Source of the DNA: a virus
Direction: 5' to 3' (one strand)
Length of the DNA stretch: 64,000 nucleotides
IMG/VR virus record: IMGVR_UViG_3300036791_000462
Location: 32,001-96,000 of that record
This document shows, piece after piece, positions 7,547 through 49,248 of the stretch (position 1 is its first letter; the number at the start of each line of letters is the position of its first letter). The notes beneath the pieces are model-generated. The model was not told the origin of the DNA. It saw nothing but the letters and a program-made list of their open reading frames with translations, and did not search any database. The translations under genes were made by a program, and so were the position numbers.

Positions 7547-9385
7547 CTACCTCCTCGTGCTGGACGCAAGCCCTACGGTCAGCTTGCCTGTCAGGTCGCC
7601 GCGCCGCTGCTGGATGGCCTGAACCTTCTGGCGCTCCTCATTGGTCGCGCCGCTGCCCGGCTGCAGGCGTTTCTGTAGCTGCGCGCCACCGAGATCCTCC
7701 AGATGCACCAGGTGAATCGGAACGTGCGTCAGCCCGCGCTCCTGCGCGACCTGGAACGTGGAGTTGCCGTCGAGGATCCGCATCGTCCCGTCAGGCTCAC
7801 GGCGGACCATCAGCGGCTTGCGTTTATCCATCTCTCCGCGCTTGGCCTTGTCCATGAACCCTGCCGCTTTCGCGACGTGCTCGGCGGTGTCCTGTCGCGA
7901 CGGGGTGAGATCGCGGACACGCACCAAGTCGTGCGGCTTGCGCAGGTCGAAGTAGTCGGATGCCATCTCCGCTCCGTGCGCTGCGCTACCACCCCCGCTC
8001 GGTTTTAGGCGGTTGAACACCTCCGACCATTTCCCGCCGCGCCCCCTCGGGTGCAGGCGAGCGTTCCAGAACGCCTCAGCCAGCCTGGCGCGGAGCACAC
8101 GTTCGCGAGCAAGGGCGCGAGTGAACTCCGTGCCGTTGGCGGCTGCCTTCCGGGCGATGATCGCCTCGGCCAGCGCCGTCACCGCTGGCGCGAGATCACG
8201 CCCATCCAGGATCGTCGTGTCCGCCGGTGGCGGTGGCTGCTCGGCACGCCCGTCCGGGATCGTGAGGTCCGGCAGGTCACGAACACCGGTCCGGGTCCAG
8301 ATCGGCAGGTCGCAGTCGGGTGTCTGCTCGCGCCCGTCGGGGATCGACATTGACGGGTCGCCGCCGTAACCGAACGCGACGGTTGTTTCCTCCAGGTCCG
8401 GTTGCTGGGCTGGGATCTGCGCGGAGGTCGCAACCTGCACCTTCCCCGTCCGGTGCGGAGTTGCCCCACCTTTCTTCGGCGCGGTGAGCTTCATCTTCGG
8501 CCCGCCGCCGCCGCTGGGTTTGTGCGCCTTCCCGCGTTCGAGCACCGCGACCTCGCCCGGCAGCGGAGCTTGTGCTCGCGCGATCTTCGCGGCCTCCTGC
8601 TTCGCTAGCTGTTTCTTGAGTGCCTTCACGGCCCTGAGTGCTCCTCTCGCGTTCTTCTGGGCGGTTCTCGCGGTACGTGCCGCTGCTTGCGCGTCCCTGT
8701 GCGCGATGGCGCTGCCGCCGACGGCGGCGGCTTTGGCTTCCTTCGCGAGCTTCTCGGCGTTCGCGGCAGCGGTCTGTGCCTGCGCGGCGTCGTGGCGTGC
8801 CCACATCAGGTTTGTGTCGTGTCCCGTCTGACGCGCTTCCTTGGACGTTTGCTGCCCGGCGGCGATGGCGGCTTTCGTTTCACCGGAGACGGTCGTGTTC
8901 GCCTGCGCCTGCGCGGGAGTGATCTTCGCGACGGACGCTCTCGACGTGCTCGACTTCGAGGTGGACCTGCTGGTGGACCTGGACTTCTTGGGGGCGTACG
9001 GGCCGATGCCCCGCATGCGCTGCACCTGATCGAGCGTCTGCGGCGGCGGGTTCTGCAGCAGCGTCATCGTCGCGGCGTCCACGCCCATGCTCGGACTCAG
9101 CCCGTAGCGCTTCTGGAACGTCTGCACCGCCTGGGTGGTCGCCGGACCGTACTGGCCGTCCACCGGCACCTTGAACCCAAGCTCGTTCAGGCGCTGCTGC
9201 AGTTGCGCGGTCGTCTGATCAGGGCCGCTGGCGGTGTACCCGTCGCCGTGTTTGACGATCCACTGCCCACCACGCCCGCGTGGGTGAAGCTGATTGAAGT
9301 TCCCACCGGCCGTCCCACCGGTGCGGCTCTGCGGTTTGGTCTGCGGTTTGGGTGGCGGAGGCGGCTTCGGTGAGATCAGCGGCAC
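7547..9385 (-). CDS. HPRGRGG-tagged multidomain protein: peptidoglycan-binding domain + Lys/Ala-rich linker + ParB/Srx-like domain
   Basis: LQQRLNELGF...DGQYGPATTQAVQTFQ (PG_binding_1); two HPRGRGG motifs; PLMVRR...RILDGNSTF...GLTHVPI. Confidence 0.75.
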   Translation of the reverse strand: MPLISPKPPPPPKPQTKPQSRTGGTAGGNFNQLHPRGRGGQWIVKHGDGYTASGPDQTTAQLQQRLNELGFKVPVDGQYGPATTQAVQTFQKRYGLSPSMGVDAATMTLLQNPPPQTLDQVQRMRGIGPYAPKKSRSTSRSTSKSSTSRASVAKITPAQAQANTTVSGETKAAIAAGQQTSKEARQTGHDTNLMWARHDAAQAQTAAANAEKLAKEAKAAAVGGSAIAHRDAQAAARTARTAQKNARGALRAVKALKKQLAKQEAAKIARAQAPLPGEVAVLERGKAHKPSGGGGPKMKLTAPKKGGATPHRTGKVQVATSAQIPAQQPDLEETTVAFGYGGDPSMSIPDGREQTPDCDLPIWTRTGVRDLPDLTIPDGRAEQPPPPADTTILDGRDLAPAVTALAEAIIARKAAANGTEFTRALARERVLRARLAEAFWNARLHPRGRGGKWSEVFNRLKPSGGGSAAHGAEMASDYFDLRKPHDLVRVRDLTPSRQDTAEHVAKAAGFMDKAKRGEMDKRKPLMVRREPDGTMRILDGNSTFQVAQERGLTHVPIHLVHLEDLGGAQLQKRLQPGSGATNEERQKVQAIQQRRGDLTGKLTVGLASSTRR

Positions 9386-9412
9386 ACCCGGAAGCGTATG
9401 GCCGCCGGGAAG

Positions 9413-9577
9413 CTATCCGTCAGGCGGATTGCGTTCCTCCCAGGCTCGCATCAGGAGCGCGACGCCAAGGACTGCAAGGATGGCGGTGAACTCCCACGCC
9501 TTGCGTGTCGCGAAGATCCCGGCGAGCAGCAGGCTCGGGATCGACAGGACCAGCCAGAGAAGCGATCTACGTCGCAC
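9413..9577 (-). CDS. Small two-TM membrane protein
   Basis: Manual translation MRRRSLLWLVLSIPSLLLAGIF...ILAVLGVALLMRAWEERNPPDG*. Confidence 0.45.
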   Translation of the reverse strand: MRRRSLLWLVLSIPSLLLAGIFATRKAWEFTAILAVLGVALLMRAWEERNPPDG

Positions 9578-9634
9578 TCACGCCTCGCGGGGTCTAACCC
9601 AGATGATGCACGCGCGCATCATTTGCGGTTCTAA

Positions 9635-10988: not shown

Positions 10989-11022
10989 ACAGACACTCGC
11001 GAGTATAAACGCCCGACGTGAG

Positions 11023-11772: not shown

Positions 11773-11777
11773 GCTTC

Positions 11778-13264: not shown

Positions 13265-13266
13265 GG

Positions 13267-14011: not shown

Positions 14012-14018
14012 TTTCTAC

Positions 14019-16017: not shown

Positions 16018-16749
16018 CTAGCCTGCAGCGGCTCCAGTATCGCCCCCACTTCCTCCGGTCCTTTCATCGTCGGACTGCAAGTCACGCGGAACCCCGAAGT
16101 CGGCAGCCAGTTGCGGGTCGATGGGAGGTGCCCCTTGATCCCACCCCGGCGGCGGTGTCCACGTTTGCTTGCCCGCACCCTTGCGATAGCGCAGCGGTTC
16201 CGGGGAGCCCGCCTCGAACGGCACGTCGATTCGCATCCCGGCGTCACGAATCTGCGTTTCGGTCATCCCCCCGGCCGGTAGCTCACTGGCCTGCGGGGGG
16301 TTCGGCAGGTCGCTGCTTGAGTCCGCTTCGCTCAACTGGTTCAAGTCCTGCAGCCACTGCGGGTCGTCGCCCGCGAAGTCCTCGTCCACCGGTCCTTCGG
16401 GCTCGGCGACGCCCTGCACCGGCTCGGTCAGACGGTGCCTGCCGCCGACCATCCCGGCGATCTCCTCGGCGCTGGACGGCCACAGGTCATCCTGCGCCTG
16501 GGGGTTGGTCATCCACCCGTTGTCGTTCTCAGAGAACGTGTCGCCGTCACCCGGTCCTGTCTGGCGGTACGGTGTCGTCCCGTCACGCAGCCAGTAGGTG
16601 TAGTCGCCGCCTTCGTAGTCCGATCTTGGTGGTCCCGGCAGCGGGCGTTGCGGCAGTGTTTGCGACGGGTCCGTTTCGCGGTTGACCGTCCCGCCTGGAT
16701 CGACTGGTGCGAGCGGGTCGCGGGCCTCGTCCAACTCGTCGGCCATCAC
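16018..16749 (-). CDS. Acidic low-complexity protein coupled to Zeta/RelA gene
   Basis: GTGA overlap; Asp/Glu/Pro-rich; LSEA site. Confidence 0.6.
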   Translation of the reverse strand: MMADELDEARDPLAPVDPGGTVNRETDPSQTLPQRPLPGPPRSDYEGGDYTYWLRDGTTPYRQTGPGDGDTFSENDNGWMTNPQAQDDLWPSSAEEIAGMVGGRHRLTEPVQGVAEPEGPVDEDFAGDDPQWLQDLNQLSEADSSSDLPNPPQASELPAGGMTETQIRDAGMRIDVPFEAGSPEPLRYRKGAGKQTWTPPPGWDQGAPPIDPQLAADFGVPRDLQSDDERTGGSGGDTGAAAG

Positions 16750-19604
16750 GCCACCCTCGGGCGCAGCACCCCGGTGAGCCGATTGCCCCGACGGGCGCGG
16801 TTACCTGTTGGTTCCTGGGTGCCTGCCAGGATCGCGTTGGTGCGCGCGGTCAGGCCCTTCAGTTCTCTGGCGGCAGCGCGCTGCTCGTCGCGGGTGCCGA
16901 GAATCACCTCGTGCGGGTCCGCGACGAGCCCGCCGTGCTGGGACACGCCCCACGCCCGGTCGTAGTACGGCTTCGCGGCTTTCTGCAGGTCCGCGACAAC
17001 CTGTTTCTCGGCCGGTGTCGGCTCGCGTTTCTGCTGTTTGGCAAGCTCCTCGACCTGGCGTTCCAACTCGTAGTAGTGGTGGCCCGGCCCGATCTCCTTC
17101 GTCCACCACAGCGGGTTGGTGTTGACCTGAAGCTCGGTCGTCAGCCCACCGGCGGACTCGGGTGCGCGCAGGATCAGGGTCGTGTCGCCGTACCCGTTCT
17201 CCGTCGAGCGGTTCGACCCGTTCGCGTCCACCAGACGGCGTTTCATCCGCTCCACCGTCCAGCCCTTCGCAGCGACCTGCTGGCGGATCGTCGCGAGCGT
17301 GTGTTCGAGATCCTGCGCGGTCGGGACGGTCACCGTCGCACGAACCGCGTCGTGCAGGTCAGAGAAGTCGTTCGCGTGACCCAGCGACGCCTGCTTCGCA
17401 ATCGCTCGCTTCAGGCTCTTGATCGGCGCGACGATCAGGTGCGGCTGGTCCATGTTGTGCTGGATGTCCTGCCCGGTCTGCTGGAAGCTCTTGCCCTGCG
17501 AAATGTCGTGCTTGGTCCCGCCAAGCTGGTCGATCACGCCGGTGCCGATGTCGAGGATCTGCTGCAACGCCGGAAGCGTTTTCGACTCGCCTCGCGCGAG
17601 AAGCTCCTGCGGGTCGCTGACCGGCTGTTTCTTCTTCTCCCCGTCGCCGGTGATCCCGAACTGGTCGCGCATCGACTGAAACTCCTTCGAGACGTTGCGG
17701 CCCACACGACGCTCGACCTCGGGGTTCGTTCGGGTCGTCTGCCCGCCCGTTTTCCAGACGCCGCGCTTCGGGCCTGCCACGTCACGCACGCCAGGTAGCT
17801 GCTCGTGCGCCTTGGCGAGCACCTGCGCGTACGCGCGGTCGGCAGGGATCGCGTAGTCCGAACCGTCGAGCTTCTTGTCCTCCGCGCCCGACGGGAAGCT
17901 GATCTTGCCGTCCGGCAGCGCTTGGGCTACGAGCCTCGGTGGGTTCGGTCGGCCGGACGCTTCGTCCAACCCCTGGTTGGTGTCGTACACGTGGACTCGC
18001 GCGCCCATCTGCGCCGCCTTGTCCATCACGCCGGGGATCGTCGCGGACACGTCGCGGTGGACCGCGCGCATGATCACGTCGGGGATCATGCGACCGCCCG
18101 CCTCGGCGTTCGCACGCGCCTTCTCGGCACGGTCCTTCGCGCGGCTGATCGCGTCGTTCGTCGGCGTGCTGACGTAGGAGATGCGCGGGTTGACGTACCC
18201 CGCGTCGGTGAACGACTTGACGCGCTTGGCGACCTCGTCGGCGTTCGTGTTCGTGATCCCGTCCACGATCACGTTCAGCTTGCGCTTCTGCGCCTCCGCC
18301 ATCACGTGCTGCGCGATGTCCCACGCCTCGGCGTACACCCGCAGGTTCGCCTCCGGGTCATCCGCCGAGCTTGCCTGAAACTCGGGTAGCTCCGCCTTGA
18401 TCAGGTCCGGGTCGAGGAGCAGCGCGTTCTGAGGCAGCGCATCCGGGTCGTCAGGGTGCTTCTGGCTGAGCATGTGCAACAGCCCGCCCTTCCCGGCCGC
18501 GTACCCACCGCCGGTGAACATCACGGTCGGCTTGCCGGACGGCGCTTTCAGATACGAGTTCGTTTTGCTGAGCCCCCGGTCGTTGCCCTTCGCGTCCAGG
18601 TTGTGCTCGCGCAGCATCATGTCGATGATCCGCGCGTGCAGCTTCGCGCGGGACTGGTCCCACGTGCCGTCCGGGTTGCGGTACATCTCAGCGGTCGTCG
18701 GCCTGGTGGTCGCATCCTCCGCGTACGCCAACAGCGTTTTCTGGGACACGCGGCCCGCATCGTTGAAGTGAACCTCCGCTTGGCTCAGATCATGCTCACC
18801 GCGAACCTGCCCAGCGGCCGGGGTTGAGCGTGACAGCCCGACGCGACGCACCCGGCGGCCGATCCGCTTCTCCAGCGACTTGGTGCGCCGTTCGTACAGC
18901 GCCGACTGGCCGTGCGCGAGCGTCTGCTTACGGTCGTGGATCGCGTTGGTGTGCGCCTGCTCCTTCGCGAAGTGCTCCGCCGCCGCCGCGTGGTCACCAC
19001 GTTTCGCTGCCGCGTTGCCCGCCTTGCGTTCCTGGGTCGCGAGCCGCTCCAGGCGCTGGCGTCCAGCGAGGTGAACCTTCTGCGCGTCGGTGGCCTCCTG
19101 TTTGAACTGGCGCAGGCTCATCGCCTCCGGGAGCGTGCCGCCAGTCTGCACCGCCTTACCCGCAGGATGCGGTTCGGGGGTCGCGAACACGGGAAACTTC
19201 CCGCCTCTGACGCCAGCCCGGCGGCCCTTCAGCACCTTGATCTCGCCCGGCATCCGCTCCGTCGGTGGGCGCTGGATCGTTTTCAGACGCGGGCCTGAGT
19301 GAACCGCTTTCGCGATCCGGTTCTGCGGCACGACCTCGTGGGAGCGGAGCTTCGCGTCGGCAAACGCGCCGCCGAGCTTGTCGATCCACTTCCCGCCACG
19401 GCCGCGCGGGTGCAGCACCTCGGTCCAGTCAACCTCCTGCAGGCCGGTGAGCGCCAGGTCGAGCACGCCTGCCTGCTCCCACAGGTCAAGTTCGGTGTGC
19501 GACACCCAGCCGATCCGGTCCAGATCGTCGGTGGTGGCGAGCCCCCGGCGCAAGAACTCCTCTCGGAGGGTGGCGTTCTCGCGCGCAATGGTGGCAGCCT
19601 CCAT
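16746..19604 (-). CDS. HPRGRGG-tagged fusion: Zeta-toxin-like P-loop kinase + RelA/SpoT-like synthetase
   Basis: FTGGGYAAGKG, LLDPDLIK, NVIVDG (Zeta); IKSLKRAIAK, DAVRAT, NGYGD, ELQVNT, GHHYYE (RSH synthetase motifs). Confidence 0.8.
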   Translation of the reverse strand: MEAATIARENATLREEFLRRGLATTDDLDRIGWVSHTELDLWEQAGVLDLALTGLQEVDWTEVLHPRGRGGKWIDKLGGAFADAKLRSHEVVPQNRIAKAVHSGPRLKTIQRPPTERMPGEIKVLKGRRAGVRGGKFPVFATPEPHPAGKAVQTGGTLPEAMSLRQFKQEATDAQKVHLAGRQRLERLATQERKAGNAAAKRGDHAAAAEHFAKEQAHTNAIHDRKQTLAHGQSALYERRTKSLEKRIGRRVRRVGLSRSTPAAGQVRGEHDLSQAEVHFNDAGRVSQKTLLAYAEDATTRPTTAEMYRNPDGTWDQSRAKLHARIIDMMLREHNLDAKGNDRGLSKTNSYLKAPSGKPTVMFTGGGYAAGKGGLLHMLSQKHPDDPDALPQNALLLDPDLIKAELPEFQASSADDPEANLRVYAEAWDIAQHVMAEAQKRKLNVIVDGITNTNADEVAKRVKSFTDAGYVNPRISYVSTPTNDAISRAKDRAEKARANAEAGGRMIPDVIMRAVHRDVSATIPGVMDKAAQMGARVHVYDTNQGLDEASGRPNPPRLVAQALPDGKISFPSGAEDKKLDGSDYAIPADRAYAQVLAKAHEQLPGVRDVAGPKRGVWKTGGQTTRTNPEVERRVGRNVSKEFQSMRDQFGITGDGEKKKQPVSDPQELLARGESKTLPALQQILDIGTGVIDQLGGTKHDISQGKSFQQTGQDIQHNMDQPHLIVAPIKSLKRAIAKQASLGHANDFSDLHDAVRATVTVPTAQDLEHTLATIRQQVAAKGWTVERMKRRLVDANGSNRSTENGYGDTTLILRAPESAGGLTTELQVNTNPLWWTKEIGPGHHYYELERQVEELAKQQKREPTPAEKQVVADLQKAAKPYYDRAWGVSQHGGLVADPHEVILGTRDEQRAAARELKGLTARTNAILAGTQEPTGNRARRGNRLTGVLRPRVA

Positions 19605-37124: not shown

Positions 37125-37517
37125 TTACAGCGTTGCGCCTGCTGTCGCGAGGATGTTGCGCAGCGTGCCTGTCGGGATCGAGCCGGTGTGCGTTGGGACG
37201 ATCACGCGCCTGCCGCCGTCGGGGTGTTCGAACACGGCGTGGCTGCCTTTCTGGCCGACTCGTTTGAACCCGGCTTTGCGGAGCATGCGGTGGATCTGCT
37301 TGGCTGTCATCGCTGGCAGCTTCGAGGGTGGGTGCGCTGCGTGGATCACGCCTGAGAGCGTGAACTCGCCGCTGCGGTTACGCGGGTGCAGGATCTCGTC
37401 CCACGCGAAGTGCGACGGGTCGCGACGTTCGAGGATCAGGGTCGCGGCGCGCATCGCTACCGGTCGGCTCAGGCCGCGCGCTTCGTGGATCGCGACCTGG
37501 TCCCAGTAGCCGGGCAT
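37125..37517 (-). CDS. hicA: HicA-family mRNA interferase with N-terminal HPR-tag extension
   Basis: MLRKAGFKRVGQKGSHAVFEHP...VIVPTH...IPTGTLRNIL; N-terminal WDEILHPRNRSGEF. Confidence 0.85.
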   Translation of the reverse strand: MPGYWDQVAIHEARGLSRPVAMRAATLILERRDPSHFAWDEILHPRNRSGEFTLSGVIHAAHPPSKLPAMTAKQIHRMLRKAGFKRVGQKGSHAVFEHPDGGRRVIVPTHTGSIPTGTLRNILATAGATL

Positions 37518-37759: not shown

Positions 37760-37957
37760 TTATGCGGTCTGGAAGTCGATGTGGTCGATGTCGGCCGGGT
37801 CGTACACGGTCAGCGTCGGCGTACCGCTCTCGTCGGTGGTGGTCACGTGAACGTTGCCGTCGCCGACGATCCCGATGTGGGTCACGTCGATGGGGGTGTC
37901 GGGGTCTGCGGCGAGGAACACGCGGCCGGGCGTGTCGGTGGGCCGGTACGCCATCAC
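37760..37957 (-). CDS. Small hypothetical protein
   Basis: GTGA-coupled to amidase. Confidence 0.55.
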   Translation of the reverse strand: MMAYRPTDTPGRVFLAADPDTPIDVTHIGIVGDGNVHVTTTDESGTPTLTVYDPADIDHIDFQTA

Positions 37958-38859: not shown

Positions 38860-38974
38860 GTGGGATCTCCTCCGGGTGCGACGGTTCTTCGTCGGGCTCG
38901 GGGTTGGGCTCCGGCCAGTCTGGGTCGTTCTCCTGGTCGTAGATCGTGTGCTCGTAGTCCTCCTGGTCTGTCAC
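38816..38974 (-). CDS. Tiny acidic Pro-rich peptide
   Basis: GTGA coupling to holin stop; MTDQEDYEH...PEPDEEPSHPEE; overlaps amidase start by 44 nt. Confidence 0.4.
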   Translation of the reverse strand: MTDQEDYEHTIYDQENDPDWPEPNPEPDEEPSHPEEIPHADTAAETNPDPEP

Positions 38975-39291
38975 TTCGTGCCTCCTGCGGCTTGCTTGGG
39001 CTGTTCGATCTGCACTGGCTCTGGGACGGGCGTGGCGGCGATCCCCTTCTGCACCTTCTGCTCCCACGCAATCCAGCCTCGCAGCCAGGACTGCTGGCCG
39101 AGCCAGACGAGCAGGCTGGTGAGCCCGAACACGAGCGCTTGGGTCAGCCACTTGGTGATCGAGGATGCGTTGGTGTGCCAGTTGGTGAGGAAGTGCAGAT
39201 GGACGAATAACCAATCCACCACGGCCCCCGAGAGGATCGCGATATACGGACCGGCGAACGCGACGATCCGGTTGAGTGGCACGTTACTCAT
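38971..39291 (-). CDS. Holin
   Basis: Two TM segments, charged C-terminus, located between two endolysins. Confidence 0.7.
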   Translation of the reverse strand: MSNVPLNRIVAFAGPYIAILSGAVVDWLFVHLHFLTNWHTNASSITKWLTQALVFGLTSLLVWLGQQSWLRGWIAWEQKVQKGIAATPVPEPVQIEQPKQAAGGTK

Positions 39292-39298
39292 GAATACC

Positions 39299-40096
39299 TC
39301 ACTTCTTGCGCTTGTACTTGTCGCGCAGCAGCTTGATCGTTTGCGGTCCGACAACGCCGTCGGCGGTGAGCTTGTTCTTCTTCTGGAAGTTCTGCACCGC
39401 CTTGGTCGTGCGGGCTCCGTAGTCGCCGTCGATGGCCGGTGGGATCTTCTTCGCCTTGTCGCCCTTCGGTAGGTAGCCGCCGCGCAGCAGGTAGGTCTGG
39501 ACCTCTTTCACGTCGTTGCCGGTGTCGCCCTGGCGGAGCGTGCGGTCAGGGAGCTTGCCGGTCTTGCCAGGCACCACGGCGTCGCCGAGCGCGCTGGCTC
39601 GCGCGTAGCGTTGCTGGCGGTCTGTGAGCCCGTTGGTACCGCCGTTGATCCGCCGGGTCGCGGCGTTCACGTCGCGCTGGTCAGCGATGGGGTTCAGCCC
39701 GTGCTGCCACCACCACCAGGCGCTGATCCGGAAGGCGTTGCGCGGCTGTGCGGCTAGTTCCGGGTGGTTGATCAGGTCAAGGCCGAGCGCTTTGCCTGCG
39801 GCGGCGTAGTTCGTGCGGCCGGTCAGTTGGATCGGGCCGCGTCCCTTGTACCGTCGGCCGTCGCCAGGTTGGGTGTTGCCGAGATCGGCGCGGCCTTGGT
39901 ACGCGGCCCCGGAGGCGATCTCCTCCATGTACTTGAGGCTGCCGCTTTCGTGTCCCACCTGGCTTAGCCACATTTGCGCGCGTTCGGGGGTGTTGATCTG
40001 GAACTCGTTCATCGCCTGTTCCATGAACGGGAGGTACGCCTGGGCGGTGTGGCGCGGTAGGCCGGGCATCGCTTTCATCAGCGTTTCGACGTTCAC
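39299..40096 (-). CDS. Endolysin: glycoside hydrolase family 19 + peptidoglycan-binding domain
   Basis: QVGHESG, YKGRGPIQLTGRTNY, TRRINGGTNGL; LRQGDTGNDVKEVQ...DGDYG...DGVVGPQT. Confidence 0.92.
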   Translation of the reverse strand: MNVETLMKAMPGLPRHTAQAYLPFMEQAMNEFQINTPERAQMWLSQVGHESGSLKYMEEIASGAAYQGRADLGNTQPGDGRRYKGRGPIQLTGRTNYAAAGKALGLDLINHPELAAQPRNAFRISAWWWWQHGLNPIADQRDVNAATRRINGGTNGLTDRQQRYARASALGDAVVPGKTGKLPDRTLRQGDTGNDVKEVQTYLLRGGYLPKGDKAKKIPPAIDGDYGARTTKAVQNFQKKNKLTADGVVGPQTIKLLRDKYKRKK

Positions 40097-40842: not shown

Positions 40843-40843
40843 C

Positions 40844-43519
40844 TTAGGCTAATCCCTCGGTTTTGAATGTCCGGTCCAGGTCGCTGACGTTGATGCCCTT
40901 CTCGGCCAGCGGGCCTAGTGATGCTGCGTCTCGCAGCCGTGCCAGATACGCCTGTGCCGGGGAGATCTTCATCACTCCCAGCGCGTTGGACACGTCCCGG
41001 TGGATCCGGTCGATCTGCTCAGCCGGAATGTTTTGGCCCTGCATCCACCTGTCGGCGACTGTCATCGCGTGGTGATGCTCAGCGCTGCGCACTCTTGGCG
41101 CTTCCGCTGTCACCGGTCGCGGGGTCGGCGCTGACGGTTGGTCGATCTGGTCGCCCGCGACCCACAGGCGTCCGCCGTCTTTGAGCACGACCAGCGCGTT
41201 GTTCTCGTTCACGTCGAAGACCGTGCCGTCCAGTTGCCGTCCTGAGCCTGCCAGCGCGAACTTGACCTGGTCGCCCGCCTGCACCTTGCGTCCGCTGGCG
41301 GTGGTGACGGTCGGCATCTCCGTTTTGATGTCGGACAGGTCGGGTGTGACGACGGGGTCAAACGTGCTGTGCGTGATTTGCTTCGCGTCGGGGTGAAGGA
41401 GCGCGCCTCGTAGCGTCTTGACTCCTGGTCGTGACTGTTGCGCGAGCGCGATCAACTCCTGGTGCTGGTCGGCGGTGGCGCGCTGGAACTTCAGTTCGCG
41501 GAGCTTGGAGCGGCGCTGCTCGTCGCTCAGGCCCGCGCTGCGCATGATCGCCCCAACCTGCGCACGGTATTTCGGGTAGGTGCCGCGCACGCGGTAATCC
41601 ATCGGGTGGCGTTTGACGGCTTCGAGCACGTCGGTCATCCCGTAGCTGCGTAGCCAGTCGGCGACCTCCAGGTGTCCTGTCTCCTCGGTCAGCGCCTCCT
41701 CAACGTTGACGCCGAACCCCTTGTAGTCCTGTGCCTGGATGCCGCCGAGCACGCCGACGCCGTGGTTGATCTCGTGCTGGAGGATCTCCAGGTCGTTGTA
41801 GAAGTTCAGCCGCTCGTTGTCGGTCTGCTGCTTACCTTCGGCGCGGGTGGTGAGGAAGTCGCTGGCGTTGTCGAGGTAGCGCTGCTTGATCCCTATCGAC
41901 CCGTTCCAGCGGTGGATGCCAGCGGCGTTGCGGGGGATCCGCTCGGCGTCCACGTGCTTGACGTTCTGCTCGGTTTCGTAGCGCTTGGCGAGTTCGTCCG
42001 CGCGGCCGAGTACGTCGGTCAGCAGTTCGTCCAGGTTCTTCGGCGCTTGGCCGTGTGGCAGCCGGGTGCGGTTCTGCGGGACGATCTCGACCTTCGAGAT
42101 GTTCGGAGCGCGTCTGAGCGCGCCCCCGATGTACTGCGGCTCGACGGTGAGTCTCACGGTCGAGCGGTCGGGCAGGACCAGCTTGCTGGAGAGCGTCGGC
42201 GTGGTGCCGGGCTCCTGGGGTAGCTTCACGGCCCCGAGACGTTCCAGTAGCTGCGTCGCGCTGTACACGTCCATGTTTCCTAGCTCGTGCAGCAGCGCCT
42301 TGTTGTCACGGCCGACCAGCGCCGCTTTGATCGCCTCGTCCTTCTGCACGGCCTCCTCGCGCTTGCGCTTGATCTCGTCCTGAGCCTCCTGCCAGACGCG
42401 CACGTCGTCGGCGCGCTGCTCGGGCGTCACGATCATGTGGTCCCAAACCATCGAGCCGTGGCCCGCGTTGACGACCTCCAGCGGACGTTGGTACTCGGGG
42501 TCTGAGGGGTTGCCGCCTCGGCGCATGTGCAGCACGAGCGAGTCGGGCGGCTGGCCGGGGCCGACCTCCTTGTCGAACCGGGTGACGCCCTCCACGCCTT
42601 CGGGGAGGCTGCCTGCGGATAGCTCGCCACGGTTCTGGGACACCTTCATCCGCCAGCCCGAGTCGATGGTGTGCAGCGCGTTGACGACAGTGTTGGCGTT
42701 GTCGCCCGGTTTGACGTGGGCGAACGGGTTCTCCTGGATCGCGGCGAGCTTCGCGCTCGCGACCTCGCTGTCGGTTGGGCGAAACGCGGTGACCTTGCCG
42801 ACCTGCACGCCGCCGGGGGTGTCGTCCACACGCAGCGCACGGCCCTGCCCGTTGGGGTGAACGAACTCCATCCAGTCGTCGCCGTTTTCGTTGACGACCT
42901 TCGGGCGGCTGTAGCCCGCACCGCGCATCGAGTTGCGAACGGTCTGCGGGTCGCCGTGGGTCAGCAGCGCGGCGACCGGGTCGCTGTTCGGGATCGGGGG
43001 GTGCAGTTCGGCGCTGGCGTCGGCGACGGTGCCGCCTGGTGCTTCGCCGAACCCTGGTCCCTTGAGCGTCAGGTGCAGGTCCGCTCCCTGCGTGTGCGAA
43101 CGGAAGACCTGTTTGCGGTTGTCGCCGCTGACGTAGTGGAAGTCAAGCGGCATCGGGTGCCCGCCGCGAGCGGCGGTTTCGAGCGACATCGAGCCGCTGC
43201 GGATCTCGCTCATCGTCTGGCCGATCAGCCCGGCGGCGAGGTCGTGCGACGGGTGTGTCTCATCGAGGATCGCGGGCGGGCGCTCCAGCGTTTCGATCCA
43301 CTTGCCGCCGCGTCCTCGCGGGTGCTCAAACGCTTTGAAGTCCGCTTCGCTGATCTCGCCGTACAGCGACTGTTCGATCTCGCGGTCGATCTGCTCAAGC
43401 TCGGCGCGGTCCTGTGCGCTCATCTGATCCCAGTTGCGCCGGGCCTGTTCGATCTCCTGCTCGGTGGGTTCCTCAGCCCCGACCTGGCCGTCGGTGATCT
43501 TCAGCGGTTCGGGGTTCAC
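40844..43519 (-). CDS. HPRGRGG-tagged multidomain protein with gluzincin metallopeptidase motif
   Basis: ISEADFKAFEHPRGRGGKW; LQHEINHG...VEEALTE; SH3-like VQAGDQVKF...GTVFDV. Confidence 0.7.
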   Translation of the reverse strand: MNPEPLKITDGQVGAEEPTEQEIEQARRNWDQMSAQDRAELEQIDREIEQSLYGEISEADFKAFEHPRGRGGKWIETLERPPAILDETHPSHDLAAGLIGQTMSEIRSGSMSLETAARGGHPMPLDFHYVSGDNRKQVFRSHTQGADLHLTLKGPGFGEAPGGTVADASAELHPPIPNSDPVAALLTHGDPQTVRNSMRGAGYSRPKVVNENGDDWMEFVHPNGQGRALRVDDTPGGVQVGKVTAFRPTDSEVASAKLAAIQENPFAHVKPGDNANTVVNALHTIDSGWRMKVSQNRGELSAGSLPEGVEGVTRFDKEVGPGQPPDSLVLHMRRGGNPSDPEYQRPLEVVNAGHGSMVWDHMIVTPEQRADDVRVWQEAQDEIKRKREEAVQKDEAIKAALVGRDNKALLHELGNMDVYSATQLLERLGAVKLPQEPGTTPTLSSKLVLPDRSTVRLTVEPQYIGGALRRAPNISKVEIVPQNRTRLPHGQAPKNLDELLTDVLGRADELAKRYETEQNVKHVDAERIPRNAAGIHRWNGSIGIKQRYLDNASDFLTTRAEGKQQTDNERLNFYNDLEILQHEINHGVGVLGGIQAQDYKGFGVNVEEALTEETGHLEVADWLRSYGMTDVLEAVKRHPMDYRVRGTYPKYRAQVGAIMRSAGLSDEQRRSKLRELKFQRATADQHQELIALAQQSRPGVKTLRGALLHPDAKQITHSTFDPVVTPDLSDIKTEMPTVTTASGRKVQAGDQVKFALAGSGRQLDGTVFDVNENNALVVLKDGGRLWVAGDQIDQPSAPTPRPVTAEAPRVRSAEHHHAMTVADRWMQGQNIPAEQIDRIHRDVSNALGVMKISPAQAYLARLRDAASLGPLAEKGINVSDLDRTFKTEGLA

Positions 43520-45042
43520 GTCTTCCTCCGCTTCGCTGCGGCGGCGGCTCTGCGTGCCGTCTCGGCTTCCACGTCGGCGTCCTGGCGGCGCTGCTGTTCA
43601 GTCCAGACGACGGCCTGTAGCTCGTGCGGTTTGAGCCCCACCCTGTCGGCGACGGCGTGCACACGGTTCGCGGTCCACAGGTAGCCGCTGTTCTTGGCGG
43701 TGGGTTTACCTGAGCCGATCACGATCTCGCCCGCCTTGTCGTAGTCGGCACGGGCGGTTTCGCCGAGCAGCGCGCGGGCCATCAGCGTGTCCACGGTGAC
43801 GGTCGTCGGCTGGTCGGGGAACGCGAGGTTGTTGTAGAAGCTGCGGGTCTTCGGGTAGCTCAGCACCGCGTCGGGGTTCTCGCCTCGGTACAGGCGCAGC
43901 GCGGCTTTCAGCGAGTTGCGCATCATCGTCGGGCGCTCCAGCCTGGCAGCGAGCGCGTTCGGGTCTTCGTTGGGATGCGCCCTGGCGATCTTCATCGCGC
44001 GCAGCGCCGCTTCGAGGTTCTCGTACTTGCCCGCTTTCGGGCCGGTCTGCCACTGCCAGCGCATGCGCGGTGAGGTCGCGGCAACCATCGCGGTCAGCAC
44101 CGCCGGGTCCACGTTGTTCTTTGCGGCGACCTGCCCGATCAGGTTGTGCGCGTCGGCGTACCAGCGCGCGTCGTGCTCGCCGTGACCGGTGCTCATCGCC
44201 TGGCGGTACATCTCCTCGAAGCGAGCCTCCGCCTGGGCGTCGGTTAGCTCCACGCGGCTGTGTTCGTGTCCGCGCTGCTCCAGCGGCGTGACGCGGCCGA
44301 GGTCGCCCTGTTCCTGGGCGGTCGGTTCGCGGGTGTGCTTGTCCCACTCCTCGGGGAGTCCCAGCCCGATGCCCTTCTTGCCGGGCGCGGTGTAGACGGT
44401 GACGTGCGGCGGCGGCACGGGGATCTTCTCGCCCGCCTGTTCGGAGAGCTTGTCGTACAGATCGGAGGCACCCTCGACTTTTGCGGGGATCACGAGCGAA
44501 CGTCGATCACCCTTCTCGGCGATACGCCACGGCGGTCCGATGTGCGTGACGCTCACCGGCGCGTTCTGCACCTGGTTGGCCATCTGCTTCAGCGTCGCCT
44601 CGTCGGTGATGGAGGTCGCGCGCTTGACCCGCCGGGAGTCGAACATCGTGACGTGCGGGTTTCGCACCTTCTCCCAGCGCTCACCGCCGACGGTGATCGT
44701 TTGCGGCAGGTCGGGCAGCTTGACCTCCAGCCCCCGGTAGTGCTCGCCCTTGTGCAGCGAGGAGGTGATCCACTTGCCCCCACGTCCGCGCGGGTGCTCC
44801 AGGTCATCCCAGACGCTTTCGGTTAGCTCGCTGTCGCCGTTGCCCGCGAGCGCCTGCACCTGCTGCCAGAACTCCCAGTCGTCGTCGTGGGTCGCGTCGT
44901 CCGGTGGGAGCGACAGGTCGGGCCAGCGGTCGCTGACAGTCGCAGCGGCTTGCGCCCAGTCTGGGCCGCCGCGTTTGACGACCTGCAGATCGCCGGGTTT
45001 CCAGGCGAAGCGGTCGGTGGGGTCGGGTTCCTCGACGGCCAT
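43516..45042 (-). CDS. HPRGRGG-tagged fusion: 2H phosphoesterase + HhH glycosylase-like (DUF7178-like) domain
   Basis: Two HxT motifs (NPHVTMF, PPHVTVY); WYADAH, AATSP, KTRSFYNN, VTVDTLMAR, ELQAVVW; leaderless start MAVEE. Confidence 0.75.
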   Translation of the reverse strand: MAVEEPDPTDRFAWKPGDLQVVKRGGPDWAQAAATVSDRWPDLSLPPDDATHDDDWEFWQQVQALAGNGDSELTESVWDDLEHPRGRGGKWITSSLHKGEHYRGLEVKLPDLPQTITVGGERWEKVRNPHVTMFDSRRVKRATSITDEATLKQMANQVQNAPVSVTHIGPPWRIAEKGDRRSLVIPAKVEGASDLYDKLSEQAGEKIPVPPPHVTVYTAPGKKGIGLGLPEEWDKHTREPTAQEQGDLGRVTPLEQRGHEHSRVELTDAQAEARFEEMYRQAMSTGHGEHDARWYADAHNLIGQVAAKNNVDPAVLTAMVAATSPRMRWQWQTGPKAGKYENLEAALRAMKIARAHPNEDPNALAARLERPTMMRNSLKAALRLYRGENPDAVLSYPKTRSFYNNLAFPDQPTTVTVDTLMARALLGETARADYDKAGEIVIGSGKPTAKNSGYLWTANRVHAVADRVGLKPHELQAVVWTEQQRRQDADVEAETARRAAAAAKRRKT

Positions 45043-45052
45043 TCTACCTATT

Positions 45053-46645
45053 TTAGCGCACATCCTGTGCTTGCGGCGGCAGGGCTTCCAGGATCACGCT
45101 GCGGTTGCCCCACTGGTCCTCGTTGACCTCCGCGACGCGGAACGTCGTGTTGCGGGGCAGCAGCACCTCGGACTCGGGTAGTCCCGAGCCGCCGCCGATG
45201 TGCAGTCCTTCCTCGAACGCGAAGGCGTGGATGCCAGCCGGTAGCCGGATCGAGGTCACCTCGTCGCCGGGTCTGGCGGCTATCGGGCTGCGCAGTGACG
45301 TGGACACGAACGCGGGATCGCGGACCTCGTCGCCGACGTGCAGGTTCGCGAACTGGCCGACCGGGCCGCCTCGGTAGACGGTGACGTTCTCCTTCAGGGT
45401 GGACTTGCCGATGGCGGAGTCGAGCCGGTCGATCATCTGTCCGACGGTCGCGCCGCTCGGGGGTGTCGAGTACCACGCCGACGGCGAGTCGCGGGTGACC
45501 TCGGGGTTGAGGTTGCGCAGGAACTCGTTGACGTGCACGAACCCGGACGCCTGGTAGGACGACAGCGCCCACTGTTCGTCGGTTGTCGTGCCGCTGCTGG
45601 TGAACGCCTTGTTCGCGAACTCGCGGGCGGATTGCATCTGGGTTTTGAACTCGCCCTCGTCGGATGGTTCGCGAGCACCGAACCCCTGCGTCTGCCACGA
45701 CTCGGGCTCGGGCCACTTCGCAGGCTCAGGCTCTGGCGGCTGCTCGCGCAGGTCAAGCTCGCCTTTCCAGTGGGAGCCGATCATCAGTTCCTTGCCCGGC
45801 CAGTTGCGCGTCTTGGGCGGGCCGGTGCCGGTCGAGTAGTCGTGACGTTCGGGTGGGGTTTCCCACCACCAGTGATCGAGCCCCCATCCGGCTAGCTCCG
45901 CTTCGGAGCCGAACTCCCCGGCGGTCAGCTTGCGCTCCAGTTCGGTCATCGTCTGCTCGGTGGCGCGGCTGGCGATCTGTTTCCAGCGGCCGTCCTTCTT
46001 GGCGTCGGCGAGGATCTGTTTCTGCACCGCCTGCTTGTTGCCGGTCCAGACGAACCCGCGTCTCGCCCAGGCGTAACCGCCGACGGACACCGCTTCCACA
46101 TCGGCCTTGTCCACCCCGGCGTCGCGCAGCGTGCCGAGGAAGTGGTTGGTGAACGCCGCCCCGAACCCGTTGCCCTGCTCGGAGCCGCGCAGGTAGATGT
46201 TCGACAGTTCGGCATGCCGTTCGCCACGGAGGTTCGGTGGCTTCAGCGTGACGCGAGCGAGCCCCACCGGTTCGATCTCCCCGACCTTCTGGAGGTTGAG
46301 CCACACCTCCCCGTACAGGTTCTGGGTTTTGGTGCGACCGGAGCGGACAGCGACGATCCCGGCGTGCTGGAACCCGTCCATCGCTTTGGCGAAGTCCTCG
46401 CCGGTGAAGCTCTCCCCGACACGTGGCGCTGCGGGTTTCGCGACACCTGGCTCGGGCGCAGATGTGTGGTGGTGGATGCCGCTGGTGATCCACTCGCCGC
46501 CCCGACCGCGTGGGTGTAGCCACTCGATGAAGTGCGCTTCCTGTAGCTCCTCGCCGTCGTTGTCGGTTGGCACGTCCACGGTCGCGAGCAGGCGTGCGAC
46601 CTCGTCTTCGGGTACGCCGAGGAACAACGCAGTCGGAACGGTCAT
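45053..46645 (-). CDS. HPRGRGG-tagged fusion: GNAT acetyltransferase + R-S-E ADP-ribosyltransferase (VIP2/Alt-like)
   Basis: EQGNGFG acetyl-CoA motif, GGYAWARRGF; Y...VNEFLR, VYRG, FVSTS, ESEVLLPR. Confidence 0.85.
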   Translation of the reverse strand: MTVPTALFLGVPEDEVARLLATVDVPTDNDGEELQEAHFIEWLHPRGRGGEWITSGIHHHTSAPEPGVAKPAAPRVGESFTGEDFAKAMDGFQHAGIVAVRSGRTKTQNLYGEVWLNLQKVGEIEPVGLARVTLKPPNLRGERHAELSNIYLRGSEQGNGFGAAFTNHFLGTLRDAGVDKADVEAVSVGGYAWARRGFVWTGNKQAVQKQILADAKKDGRWKQIASRATEQTMTELERKLTAGEFGSEAELAGWGLDHWWWETPPERHDYSTGTGPPKTRNWPGKELMIGSHWKGELDLREQPPEPEPAKWPEPESWQTQGFGAREPSDEGEFKTQMQSAREFANKAFTSSGTTTDEQWALSSYQASGFVHVNEFLRNLNPEVTRDSPSAWYSTPPSGATVGQMIDRLDSAIGKSTLKENVTVYRGGPVGQFANLHVGDEVRDPAFVSTSLRSPIAARPGDEVTSIRLPAGIHAFAFEEGLHIGGGSGLPESEVLLPRNTTFRVAEVNEDQWGNRSVILEALPPQAQDVR

Positions 46646-49248
46646 TCCGGTTTGACTCCGTTCATCCAGTCACCGATCTGCCGCACCCAGCCGGGCCACT
46701 CCACCGCTTTGTAGTACGGGCCTGTCACGAGCGATGCCGCCTCCGCGAACGTTTCGGTCGCGTAGCCCCCGGCAATGTTCGAGTACGGCCCGGTGGCGCG
46801 TCGCTGCGCCGCTCCCTCGTAGTCGGGGTTGCCCGCCGCGTACTGGCTGAGCCCCTTCGCGACCGCGCTCCAGTCGATCTCACCGTTGTGCTTTGGCAGC
46901 ATGTCGATGAACTGCTGGCGCTGGGTGTCGCTCAGCGCTTCCCACAGCCCGTGGCCCCACTCGTGGCGCAGCACGCCCGCCGGGTCATTGGTGGACGTGA
47001 ACTGGTCGCCAGGTTTCGATGGCTTCGGGCCGTAACGGTCAGGGAACTCGTCGGCGAGCCGCTGGCCGACAGACATCGCGGGAGCGTTGATCGAGGTGAG
47101 GTTCTGAGGCACGTTGCGGCTGGCGGTCACGAACACGTCCCGGACGCCTCCGGGGGCACGGCCATAGCCCTTTTCGGAGATCAGGATCTGGTTGTCCTCG
47201 ACGGCGGGCCAGCGGTCACGCAACGCCGCGAAGCGCGGCAGCGCATCGTTCGCGGCGTTCGCCGCACGCACCGCTCGGTACGCGCGTTTGCCGTCCTCGC
47301 CAGTGTCGGCTGCGACCGCGCCACGGTAGTTCTTGCGCTGCGACGCGAGCGTCGTCGCTCTGAACTTGTCGGTCAGATCCTGCGCTGAGTTGGTGATCGT
47401 CTCGACGGCGTTCGGGTCGCTCAGGAACGCGCCCTTGCCGATCCGCTCGGGGTACTCCAACAGCTTCGAGTTGACGGTCGCGCGCAGTTCGCCGGTGTCC
47501 CACATCGACACGAACACATCGACCGTGCCCATGTCGAGTTGGTCGTTCGCCTTCGCGTTGGCGAGGAAGTCGGGAAGCTGTGCCAGCCCCGTCTCCAGGT
47601 CGCGCTGTGCCCGGTCGGCGTAGCCACTCGCGGCCATCTGCGCCGCTTCGGCGTAGCTGCCAGCGAGCCTGGTCGGCGTGCGCCTGGTCGGCGGTGGCGA
47701 CGGCGGCGGGTTCAGCAGGTGGCTGATCGCCTGCACGGTCTGCTCGGGCGTCTGCTGCGAGGAGTCAACGATGTGAGTCGCGCCGCTTCTCGCCGCGTCG
47801 ATTCGGGGAGCGTCAAGCTGGTCGCGTTCGGTGATTGCCGCGTGCGCCTGCGGGACGGTCAGCCCGCGCGACTCCGCCCGGCGCTGCGCACGGACGTGCG
47901 GGTCGGCGGTCAGGAAGATCCGGTCGTGCGCGTTCAGCGCGCTGCCAGCGTCGCGGCCGTCGGCAACGAACAGTCCGCCTTCGGCGATGCGCTGGTGGAT
48001 CGCCGAGTCCACAGCGCTGCGAACCTCCGTCTCGCCGCCGAGCGCGGACGCGGCACGGTCCACGTTGGTGTTGCGGATCTGCTGGGAGATGTCACGGCCG
48101 TCAAGCGTGACAGTCGAACCGTCAGCGCGGATCCGTCCGGCGCGGAGCGCTCTGACAGGGTCGATTCCCATCGTCTTCGCGAGCCCTGCCGCGCGGTAGT
48201 GAGCGCCGGTATCGACGTACGTCCCGCCGAGCCGTTGCGCGAGCCTGCGAGCGACGGTGCTTTTGCCGGACGCGGCCGGGCCGTCGATGGCGATCACGTG
48301 CGCGGTGCCGAGCTTGTCGATCCATTCGCCGCCGCGCCCACGCGGGTGCTGTAGCTCCGTCCAGACGCTTTCCTGTATGCCCTGTAGCTGGGCGAGTGCT
48401 CGCGCCACGCTGGGGCGCACCTCCAGCCCGCTGAGCCACTGCTCGACCTCCCCTGGGTCTGCGACCACCCTGATCGCTTCCTCCAGCGCCAGAGCCGCCC
48501 TGGCGTCTCTGGCGGCCTGTGCCGGTTCGGGCACCGTGTCACCCGGCCCGAGCGGTTTCAGCCAGCAGCCGCAGCCGGTGTGGATCGGCGGTGGGATCGC
48601 GTCGAGCACGCCCCACGGCCACGCTTTGCCCGCGAGCGCGAGGCAGCCTCGGGTGTGGTTCTTGCGGTCGCCGAGCATCCACTTCGCACCGAGCGGCGAC
48701 CGTGCTTTGACGAGCGCGTTCTCGACGTGCGCGGTGGCTCTCGCCATCATCGCCTGTTGGCGCAGCTTGGAGTAGTGCTGCTCGCGGCTGATGATCGCGT
48801 TGATCCGCGCCTGCTGTTTGCTGTCGGGAAGCTGCCCTGCAGCGTTCAGGTCGTCCTGGACGCGCGCCAACGCTTTCTGCTGAAACAGCCGCTCGTATTG
48901 CATCTCCCTGGCGACAGCTTCGCGGATCACGGCCGGGTCGGCGTTCGGGTAGCGGCTGCGCAGTTGCTTGGTCAGCCAGTCGGCCGAGTCAGCGTGGTGG
49001 CGGCGGAACAGCGCACGCAGGATGCGCAGCGCGACGGCGATCTTCAGGCCGGTGACCGCAATCCCAACCGGCACCTTCGCGGCAGCGACAGCGGCCTGGG
49101 CTGGCAGCGTGACGGTGACCGCCGGTATCGCCGCCACGCCGACGGCGACCTTAGCGGCCTGCCCTGCAGCAGCGGCTTTCAGGATCTGCTGGACCGACGA
49201 CGACTGCGGCGGCTGTTGGGGTTGCTGCCCCTGGTCGGGAACGGCCAC
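46642..49248 (-). CDS. MuF/SPP1-gp7-like head morphogenesis protein fused to cytidylate kinase and zincin peptidase-like domain
   Basis: Near portal; KW...C..LAG...PPIHTGCGC (MuF); IAIDGPAASGKST, VDTGAHYRA, DGRDAG, IFLTAD...RAQRR (Cmk); HEWGH...SQYA...ETFAE. Confidence 0.82.
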   Translation of the reverse strand: MAVPDQGQQPQQPPQSSSVQQILKAAAAGQAAKVAVGVAAIPAVTVTLPAQAAVAAAKVPVGIAVTGLKIAVALRILRALFRRHHADSADWLTKQLRSRYPNADPAVIREAVAREMQYERLFQQKALARVQDDLNAAGQLPDSKQQARINAIISREQHYSKLRQQAMMARATAHVENALVKARSPLGAKWMLGDRKNHTRGCLALAGKAWPWGVLDAIPPPIHTGCGCWLKPLGPGDTVPEPAQAARDARAALALEEAIRVVADPGEVEQWLSGLEVRPSVARALAQLQGIQESVWTELQHPRGRGGEWIDKLGTAHVIAIDGPAASGKSTVARRLAQRLGGTYVDTGAHYRAAGLAKTMGIDPVRALRAGRIRADGSTVTLDGRDISQQIRNTNVDRAASALGGETEVRSAVDSAIHQRIAEGGLFVADGRDAGSALNAHDRIFLTADPHVRAQRRAESRGLTVPQAHAAITERDQLDAPRIDAARSGATHIVDSSQQTPEQTVQAISHLLNPPPSPPPTRRTPTRLAGSYAEAAQMAASGYADRAQRDLETGLAQLPDFLANAKANDQLDMGTVDVFVSMWDTGELRATVNSKLLEYPERIGKGAFLSDPNAVETITNSAQDLTDKFRATTLASQRKNYRGAVAADTGEDGKRAYRAVRAANAANDALPRFAALRDRWPAVEDNQILISEKGYGRAPGGVRDVFVTASRNVPQNLTSINAPAMSVGQRLADEFPDRYGPKPSKPGDQFTSTNDPAGVLRHEWGHGLWEALSDTQRQQFIDMLPKHNGEIDWSAVAKGLSQYAAGNPDYEGAAQRRATGPYSNIAGGYATETFAEAASLVTGPYYKAVEWPGWVRQIGDWMNGVKPE

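Follow-up and report, generated by a model that had tools for sequence, protein, structure and literature searches.

A conserved HPR peptide precedes unrelated effector modules in an uncultured myophage and may mark capsid-carried proteins

The proteins that a phage injects are its first weapons against host defences, and outside a few model phages they are unrecognisable from sequence. The subject of this paper is a short peptide, hereafter the tag, that recurs ahead of unrelated enzyme domains in bases 32001-96000 of the virus record IMGVR_UViG_3300036791_000462; we call this 64,000-nt stretch the window, and coordinates refer to it unless they are marked as genome. The closest described systems concern phage proteins of variable domain content and the proteases that mature phage heads. 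Polyvalent proteins are strings of 2-15 unrelated effector domains, encoded beside head genes and predicted to travel with the DNA, whose domain types include ADP-ribosyltransferase (ART), Zeta, GNAT, RelA/SpoT, ParB-like, zincin and lysozyme-type domains (Iyer, Burroughs, Anand, de Souza and Aravind 2017, PMC5512222). The MuF polymorphic toxins of temperate phages have an N-terminal MuF domain, lie beside the portal and carry variable C-terminal toxins (Jamet et al. 2017, PMC5576092). Searches of the former text for motif, linker and boundary terms return no conserved inter-domain peptide, and no junction motif is reported in the text of the latter. In phage T4, gp21 cuts after L/I-x-E and removes capsid-targeting leaders (CTS) from IPI-III and Alt, and in phiKZ and SPN3US the cut falls after S/A-x-E, in proteins that include the portal and ejection proteins with long propeptides (PMC9026906, PMC7411985).

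The source record is a single virus contig of 107,110 bp (66% G+C; CheckV completeness 86%) from an uncultured, soil-type myophage, and nearly all of its genes lie on the minus strand. A six-frame scan together with gene-level extraction finds eight HPR copies in seven genes of the window, all on that strand (Table 1), and no additional copy in the remainder of the contig. A preliminary description, made from the window alone, had placed eight copies in seven genes, and all of the His codons fall inside the ranges it gave. Seven of the eight copies read HPRGRGG[KEQ]W, and the copy at 37388 is a degenerate HPRNRSGEF. From composition, 0.004 occurrences of HPRGRGG are expected in six frames, and seven are found. 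The ungapped pattern [LI]xE-x7-H with an aromatic residue at Glu+3 holds in six of the eight copies, exactly as first quoted; the LxE is absent from the first copy of gene g612 (aa 34) and from the copy in the HicA gene g130. At the invariant codons, third positions are 46% identical across copies and the longest common exact DNA run is 18 nt, so the conservation lies at the protein level, as had been claimed. We rejected a chance origin on the counts above, chance matches genome-wide also lacking the upstream context, and we rejected a DNA-level repeat or recent duplication because synonymous sites differ and the flanking domains are unrelated.

By sequence comparison, the window peptide is the clade-specific form of a widespread and apparently undescribed tag on phage head-associated effector proteins. 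A profile search of the tag had been suggested; run with 70 tag segments against 1.84 billion representative proteins, it gave 433 proteins at E ≤ 1e-3, of which 85 remain at E ≤ 1e-10, and these 433 clusters represent only proteins that are at most 50% identical to one another. The general core consensus of the family is aromatic-[DE]-E-x-[LK]-HPR-[DG]-x-x-G-[RK]-[FW], and the extended motif is [LIMV]-x-E-small, about four residues, then aromatic-acid-E-x-L/K-HPR-x3-G-x-F/W. When IMG/VR contigs were scanned with the looser pattern HPRxRxGx[WFY], 68 of 74 peptide matches lay in long open reading frames (ORFs). None of the 68 copies departs from H, P, R and G at their fixed positions, HPR itself being part of the search pattern. 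The upstream residues lay outside that pattern, and there an aromatic residue occupies position -5 in 63 of the 68, Glu -3 in 53, Leu -1 in 59, Glu -8 in 43 and Leu -10 in 34. A degenerate DNA pattern for WDExxHPRD matches at least 120 stretches of viral contigs with G+C contents of 35-71%, which hold 148 ORFs with an HPRxxxGx[FWY] core, often as several separate ORFs in one phage. As a control, a degenerate DNA pattern for the HPRGRGG form gives at least 120 matches in 185,579 prokaryote genomes (one per species); all of those listed are out-of-frame chance matches in GC-rich DNA without the upstream context, and the GRGG variant is absent among them. Searches of Pfam with the tag segments (E ≤ 10), of NCBIfam and of PHROGs, and a PDB profile search, return nothing over the tag, and the searchable literature holds no mention of the motif or of HPRGRGG-, HPRDxxG- or NPYHD-type strings.

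The largest copy numbers come from P0073 (7,334 aa) and P0096 (5,313 aa), encoded on one 409,570-bp NCBI contig, whose tags number 15 and 16 and read WDExKHPRGEHG[RK][WF]. P0073 also contains two NPNHDxxGRF variants within the same repeat context (KD.RI.FS...) as WDExKHPRGxxGxF, the two forms share a context in one viral ORF as well, and this marks them as variants of one junction family. Candidate sister forms named beside NPxHDxxGRF are GNPYHDxxG(R/K)F and GPYIGPRGGKWAD, neither of which is used as evidence here. Cargo in the wider set includes ART-PolyVal, InPase, Zeta, ART, ATLF-type zincins, S-adenosylmethionine (SAM) lyase, PFIN and 2H, and the modules downstream of family tags also include cytidylate kinase (Cmk), GNAT, NUDIX, CCA-adding and HicA. 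As a separate observation, one tag-bearing ORF of a viral contig with 45% G+C (L216:9084-11012) has its SAM lyase domain (2.2e-11) after the second tag, which makes it a candidate packaged anti-restriction enzyme.

The tag is a header ahead of cargo modules, an order that had been read from the window and that holds across the family. Among 191 proteins, 77 have their first tag no more than 60 aa from the N-terminus, and only 6 have their last tag that close to the C-terminus. Many copies are internal, not N-terminal; Pfam domains begin 8-20 aa past tags, and the median tag-to-tag spacing is 310 aa. In canonical MuF proteins (Pfam Phage_Mu_F), the first tag follows the domain by 11-47 aa in nine of ten (median 23 aa). 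The LxE is a real, non-universal part of this extended two-part motif. Of the 13-aa windows upstream of 489 tags, 53% contain [LIMV]xE[AGSVT], compared with 4.4% of random windows from the same proteins and 4.3% of downstream windows, a 12-fold enrichment, and the upstream Glu peaks at -8 (129 cases) and at -7 and -9 (77 cases). Residues of the variable loop are shared at 0.58 within a protein versus 0.35 between proteins, a value that 0 of 1000 permutations reach. This likeness fits a common, lineage-specific partner, and shared descent of the copies could contribute to it. Autoproteolysis was set aside, as no Cys, Ser, Thr or Asn is conserved at the invariant positions.

The cargo behind the window tags is diverse. 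Of the domains first named there, ART (ADPrib_exo_Tox in g530, 6.5e-17), Cmk (Cytidylate_kin in g868, 1.3e-34), Zeta (Zeta_toxin in g952, 1.7e-22) and HicA (g130) pass Pfam, as does the peptidoglycan (PG)-binding domain of g612 (PG_binding_1, 6e-13). The GNAT reading of g530 (E 0.007-0.008), the RelA_SpoT reading of g952 (E 0.058) and the ParB_N reading of g612 (E 0.022) are sub-threshold; relatives of the g530 module are annotated GNAT, and g612 matches the ParB-like phrog_723 at 2.8e-5. The 2H reading of g515 consists of two H-x-T motifs read by eye in an alignment, Pfam 2H matches occurring in relatives only, and its second module is DUF7178 (Pfam 3e-18). The two zincin candidates of the window are HExxH motifs only (g868, aa 762; g891, aa 582), g891 has no Pfam or PHROG match and weak ESM Atlas leads, and a "glycosylase-like" domain, also listed at first, was not found. 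Among these genes, g612 represents the most widely conserved tagged family of the clade, and many of its homologues carry two or three tags.

Table 1. Tag copies, tagged genes and other features. Positions are window coordinates except where marked genome; aa, amino acids.
Feature	Position	Strand	His codon	Content
Tag copy 1	48307..48378	-	48348	IQESVWTELQ-HPRGRGGEW-IDKLG; MuF-like/Cmk junction in g868; Cmk fold begins ~9 residues later
Tag copy 2	46475..46546	-	46516	LQEAHFIEWL-HPRGRGGEW; g530
Tag copy 3	44755..44826	-	44796	LTESVWDDLE-HPRGRGGKW; g515
Tag copy 4	43283..43354	-	43324	ISEADFKAFE-HPRGRGGKW; g891
Tag copy 5	37347..37418	-	37388	Degenerate FAWDEIL-HPRNRSGEF, no LxE; g130; fits wider consensus aromatic-D-E-x-L-HPR-x3-G-x-F
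Tag copy 6	19371..19442	-	19412	LQEVDWTEVL-HPRGRGGKW; g952
Tag copy 7	9245..9316	-	9286	GGNFNQL-HPRGRGGQW, no LxE; g612; relatives share Pro/Gln/Gly-rich leader without LxE
Tag copy 8	8012..8083	-	8053	LAEAFWNARL-HPRGRGGKW; g612
g868	46642..49248	-		MuF-like N-domain aa ~60-290, tag His aa 301, Cmk aa 318-510, C-terminal region with HEWGH aa 762
g530	45053..46645	-		43-aa acidic leader, tag (His aa 44), GNAT-like module, ADP-ribosyltransferase
g515	43516..45063	-		89-aa acidic leader, tag (aa 90), 2H-like module with two H-x-T motifs, DUF7178
g891	40844..43519	-		65-aa acidic leader, tag (aa 66), 825-aa cargo with HEINH aa 582
g130	37125..37517	-		43-aa leader, degenerate tag (aa 44), HicA toxin domain (HicA_toxin 3.5e-17)
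g952	16746..19604	-		64-aa acidic leader, tag (aa 65), intermediate region, Zeta-toxin kinase, weakly RelA/SpoT-like C-terminus
g612	7547..9385	-		Pro-rich 33-aa leader, tag (aa 34), PG_binding_1, middle region, second tag (aa 445), ParB-like C-terminus
Portal protein	49806..51899	-		phrog_10963 8e-23; ~560 nt upstream of four-gene cargo array
166-aa gene	49277-49777			Between portal and g868; weak phrog_1123 match
Terminase large subunit	62336..64000	-		GpA_ATPase 4.8e-21; phrog_675 5e-78; marks window as phage DNA
Endolysin gene	39299-40096			One of a pair, with GH19 plus PG_binding_1 in one gene and Amidase-type domain (row below) in the other
Endolysin gene	37954-38859			Other gene of the pair; Amidase_2 and GH19 each belong to one of the two
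494-aa protein	genome 17552-19036			Adjoins decoration and capsid genes; conserved N-domain aa ~65-220, then acidic coiled coil

Comparison with relatives identifies the unit that is exchanged. The genes g868, g530, g515 and g891 lie downstream of the portal gene and overlap by 4, 11 and 4 nt (46642-46645, 45053-45063 and 43516-43519), overlaps that point to coupled translation of what is, in relatives, one fused polyprotein. There, single chains of 1,000-2,400 aa, each with 3-4 tags, contain the same modules, and tag-bearing relatives reach 4-16 modules. The fused MuF protein P0003 matches residues 33-295 of g530 over its aa 787-1035 at 60% identity, with homology setting in at the ELQEA of the tag. 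In P0010, the two modules that g515 matches are separated by an additional tag and a CCA-adding module. From these two comparisons, the unit of exchange is a tag plus its downstream cargo, and the homology that starts at the tag bears out the earlier view of a modular label on unrelated cargo. The stand-alone genes retain their own leader and tag, which argues that each module needs the tag itself, beyond any role as a separator. For the same reason 2A-like ribosome skipping was dropped as a candidate. BLAST single-linkage clustering of the modules collapsed into one chained cluster and was uninformative.

The first of these genes, g868, was thought to join a MuF head domain to its cargo. Its first 300 residues are 51-78% identical in 15 relatives whose cargo varies (Cmk, NUDIX, Zeta plus NUDIX, GNAT). 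In an AlphaFold2 (AF2) model from a 24-sequence alignment, residues ~60-290 are confident, and residues 291-319, which include the tag, have a pLDDT (predicted local distance difference test) of 35-40. About half of the top 50 BFVD matches are named as head morphogenesis, MuF-like or minor capsid proteins (probability ≤1.0, E ~1e-2, TM 0.2-0.5). A six-frame search of the contig with PF04233 (Phage_Mu_F / SPP1 gp7) gives only a 13-bit match on the other strand, a self-built MuF hidden Markov model (HMM) does not detect g868, and PDB fold searches with the N-domain return generic helical bundles only. We note that H223, C226 and C228 of the segment ...HTGCGC... are invariant in 24 g868 homologues and that a comparable HPRCRC stands at the end of the PF04233 match in P0124. 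With a single gene between g868 and the portal gene, the N-domain can be called MuF-like by fold, position and His/Cys signature while lying outside PF04233 by HMM; in that sense the claimed junction stands.

A head protease that cuts after Glu would require a source, and the best candidate lies beyond the window. The structural genes there encode a tail sheath, a tape measure, the major capsid protein (MCP; Phage_capsid_4, 1.2e-34) and a cement/decoration protein, with the 494-aa protein of Table 1 just upstream of them. In ESM Atlas, aa 1-240 of this protein score 0.95 to clusters that are 99-100% Peptidase_S77 (the T4 gp21 family), and its N-domain has S77-type matches in 21 of 30 cases, with S80 among the others. 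The best BFVD match, obtained with a poor model, is an Arthrobacter-phage capsid maturation protease (E 3.8e-3), and 12 of 16 tblastn records fall on genes annotated as capsid maturation or prohead proteases. Judged by sequence, it is a probable prohead protease-scaffold fusion; that it would cut after Glu follows solely by analogy with the characterised S77 and S80 enzymes (PMC9026906, PMC7411985). Whether capsid and scaffold proteins outside the window carry LxE sites had been posed as a check, and conserved LxE-A sites do occur in the MCP, the portal and the protease-scaffold protein. LQEA is found five times in the predicted proteome where 0.65 are expected: three times in the 494-aa protein, once at portal residue 12 and once in a tag. 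In the 494-aa protein, invariant LQEA sites immediately precede the protease domain and stand 14 residues short of the C-terminus; the MCP has LLEA and LEEA before the start of its Pfam domain at residue 34; and the N-terminal [KR]LQE[AQ] and LLEAS of the portal are conserved in relatives down to 38% identity. These sites are suggestive, not decisive, as the proteins are rich in Leu and Glu.

We propose that the tag is a two-part header on capsid-carried effector modules, in which an upstream Glu site is cut by a head protease and a retained HPR core is bound by a shared head component; taken as a whole, we regard this proposal as evenly balanced between right and wrong. Its first part would be [LIMV]-x-E followed by a small residue, about eight residues before the His, and its second the invariant core from the aromatic residue to F/W, possibly a small beta-hairpin in a flexible linker, which would probably be bound by a shared partner encoded by the same phage. 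Modules would reach the prohead by one of two routes, as fusions to the MuF-like domain encoded next to the portal or as individual proteins with leader and tag. A T4 gp21-like prohead protease, here the putative protease-scaffold fusion, would then cut after the Glu and free the module from its leader or MuF anchor, and the HPR core, now N-terminal, would serve all modules as a handle by which they are kept in the head or leave it with the DNA. We infer each of packaging, cleavage, core binding and injection from sequence, and regard the tag as a probable mark of proteins that enter the capsid and are trimmed inside it.

Several observations weigh against this proposal. Megablast, and tblastn of the cargo array, the g868 N-domain and the portal, found no cultured relative. 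The protease families S77 (PF03420), S78, S78_2, S49 and Mu-like_Pro are unmatched anywhere in the contig at E ≤ 10, and the AF2 model of the 494-aa protein is poor (pLDDT 50; best VIA Z 3.3). Given the missing Pfam match and the poor model, protease type and Glu specificity rest on the language-model lead and weak BLAST matches, and of the Glu-specific prohead protease first envisaged what stands is a probable protease outside the window with an S77-like lead. The LxE lies in exact register in about 48-59% of clade tags and 20% of wider-family tags, and two window copies are without it. The idea of an LxE at fixed spacing thus survives as a family-wide upstream enrichment and fails in part as a strict register, and failure of the spacing to hold in homologues had been named beforehand as a finding that would count against it. 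The genes g952, g612 and g130 are remote from the head genes and have small non-structural genes as neighbours. In cultured phages, six MuF-region loci (AXL1, Xp12, PaMx74, phiCT453A, Laroye and RDJL Phi 1) are without the tag, so MuF proteins do not need it.

Other explanations account for parts of the same evidence. The one that survives best, though we consider it unlikely, is that polyvalent proteins recognise or cut the tag with zincin metallopeptidase modules of their own, in place of the prohead protease, and so set the cargo free, either inside the head or once injected. Of 191 tag-bearing proteins, 76 contain HExxH, about ten times the expectation from composition, and two window proteins have it; ATLF-like zincin modules are present in tag-bearing relatives, and such a release role was proposed for MPTase domains by Iyer et al. 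2017. Against this, MPTase-PolyVal (PF18818) is unmatched in the contig at E ≤ 10, neither window zincin candidate passes any HMM, and many tag-bearing proteins have no HExxH. The upstream element, moreover, matches a site of the serine-protease type with Glu at P1 that is also present in the MCP, portal and scaffold, proteins that a cargo zincin has no known reason to cut.

Somewhat less likely again is a tag that acts only after delivery or in the cytoplasm and is no address or processing label, but a small binding module, for example an Arg/Gly-rich, AT-hook-like handle for nucleic acid or a host factor, that effector activity requires. The clade loop PRGRGGK has a strongly basic character and looks like an AT-hook core, with a mean loop charge of +2.6 in the clade and +1.5 elsewhere, and the tag remains adjacent to the cargo domain. 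The AT-hook core R-G-R-P is absent, as the second Pro is missing from the window copies (P-R-G-R-G-G), and loops in much of the family are neutral or acidic (HPRDDHGRW, HPRGEHGRW, HPRDESGRW). Since the basicity of RGRGG is clade-specific, it argues against DNA binding as the conserved role, and the suggestion of a new N-terminus for DNA binding is accordingly weak. Enzymes as unrelated as a kinase, an ART, a HicA RNase and a PG-binding protein are also unlikely to share one substrate handle, and action after delivery leaves the association with MuF and portal genes unexplained.

We think it improbable that the tagged proteins are not virion cargo and that the tag instead directs them to the envelope, cell wall, export, a phage-made compartment or timed degradation. 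Three tagged genes do lie outside the head module, the best-conserved tagged family bears a PG-binding domain, and packaging is itself a deduction. The proteins have no signal-peptide-like hydrophobic stretch, however, and their leaders are acidic; tags directly follow MuF head domains in many phages, and proteins of 5,000-7,000 aa with 15-16 tags suit capsid polyvalent proteins better than exported proteins. Most improbable in our view is a tag that serves only as a conserved junction or linker, at which recombination can shuffle modules more easily, with nothing acting on it in trans: the tag does mark points of module gain, loss, fusion and splitting, and copies within a protein are alike, but the codons have diverged around a conserved amino-acid sequence, the 433 clusters represent divergent proteins only, and an invariant core of 14 residues is not something that a passive linker would retain.

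The rest of the contig gives the setting of these genes. The endolysin-type gene pair (37954-40096) sits between the cargo array, which it directly follows, and the tagged HicA gene, an unusual placement for a lysis module. A 243-aa gene at 16018-16749 is the next gene after g952 and overlaps its stop codon. Positions 26180-27472 encode a family-2 glycosyltransferase fused to TPR repeats (phrog_13126 beta-1,4-glycosyltransferase, 5e-27). Between the head genes and the window, at genome 21199-31693, are two giant genes of 1,482 and 2,005 aa, and the product of the latter has two Laminin_G_3 (ConA-like lectin) stretches (2.6e-42). The terminase shows no more than 27% identity to those of the Herelleviridae type, and the phage gives no sign of lysogeny.

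If the proposed two-part header is correct, it would list candidate injected effectors in uncultured phages, in this case Cmk, ART, Zeta kinase, HicA, PG-binding and ParB-like proteins. A broader possibility, which we hold more tentatively than the header itself, is that the HPR-x3-G-x-F/W header and its NPxHDxxGRF sister form a general, sequence-readable address code for capsid-carried injected effectors across thousands of tailed phages, bound by one conserved head component with which the variable loop co-evolves lineage by lineage. Were that true, the genome sequence would by itself reveal which effectors a phage injects, and an added stretch of about 25 residues could bring foreign proteins into heads.

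Short conserved peptides of comparable use are known elsewhere. The pre-toxin motifs VENN of CdiA and PxxxxDPxGL of Rhs proteins mark the start of variable cargo and occur once per protein, and encapsulin cargo-loading peptides, usually C-terminal, dock cargo inside an HK97-fold shell. These are short and conserved like the tag and have no sequence similarity to it, so that we treat them as analogies only. The T4 CTS is nearer in logic. As in T4, a short peptide is common to unrelated proteins that include an ADP-ribosyltransferase, a hydrophobic-x-Glu is followed, in many copies, by a small residue, and, as in T4- and phiKZ-type systems, the same type of site is found in the MCP, portal and scaffold alongside a gp21-like protease lead. 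In contrast to the T4 CTS, which is the part removed, the conserved part here lies beyond the presumed cut and would be retained on the cargo; a protein may have as many as 16 tags, often at internal positions, the HPR core has no T4 counterpart, and the leaders (33-89 aa) are not conserved between genes.

The MuF polymorphic toxins share with g868 and its relatives an N-domain that is kept while the cargo varies. Unlike them, most of the tagged proteins have no MuF domain, the phage is without signs of lysogeny, and the prokaryote matches listed lack the GRGG variant. Polyvalent proteins are the closest in content: g868 (MuF-like, Cmk and HExxH), g530 (GNAT-like and ART) and g952 (Zeta and another domain) are multi-domain as they are, and the wider tag-bearing set, though none of the window proteins, holds ART-PolyVal and InPase, families defined in PMC5512222. 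The array described here differs in being partly split into coupled or dispersed genes, each with its own tag, and in having no detected MPTase-PolyVal. For the polyvalent proteins of 2017, the header would supply the missing processing or docking signal, and it would also offer a small capsid-loading tag. The tag is, on this comparison, apparently a new and so far unnamed element in a known class, that of polyvalent and MuF-linked phage effectors, with a logic like that of the T4 CTS.

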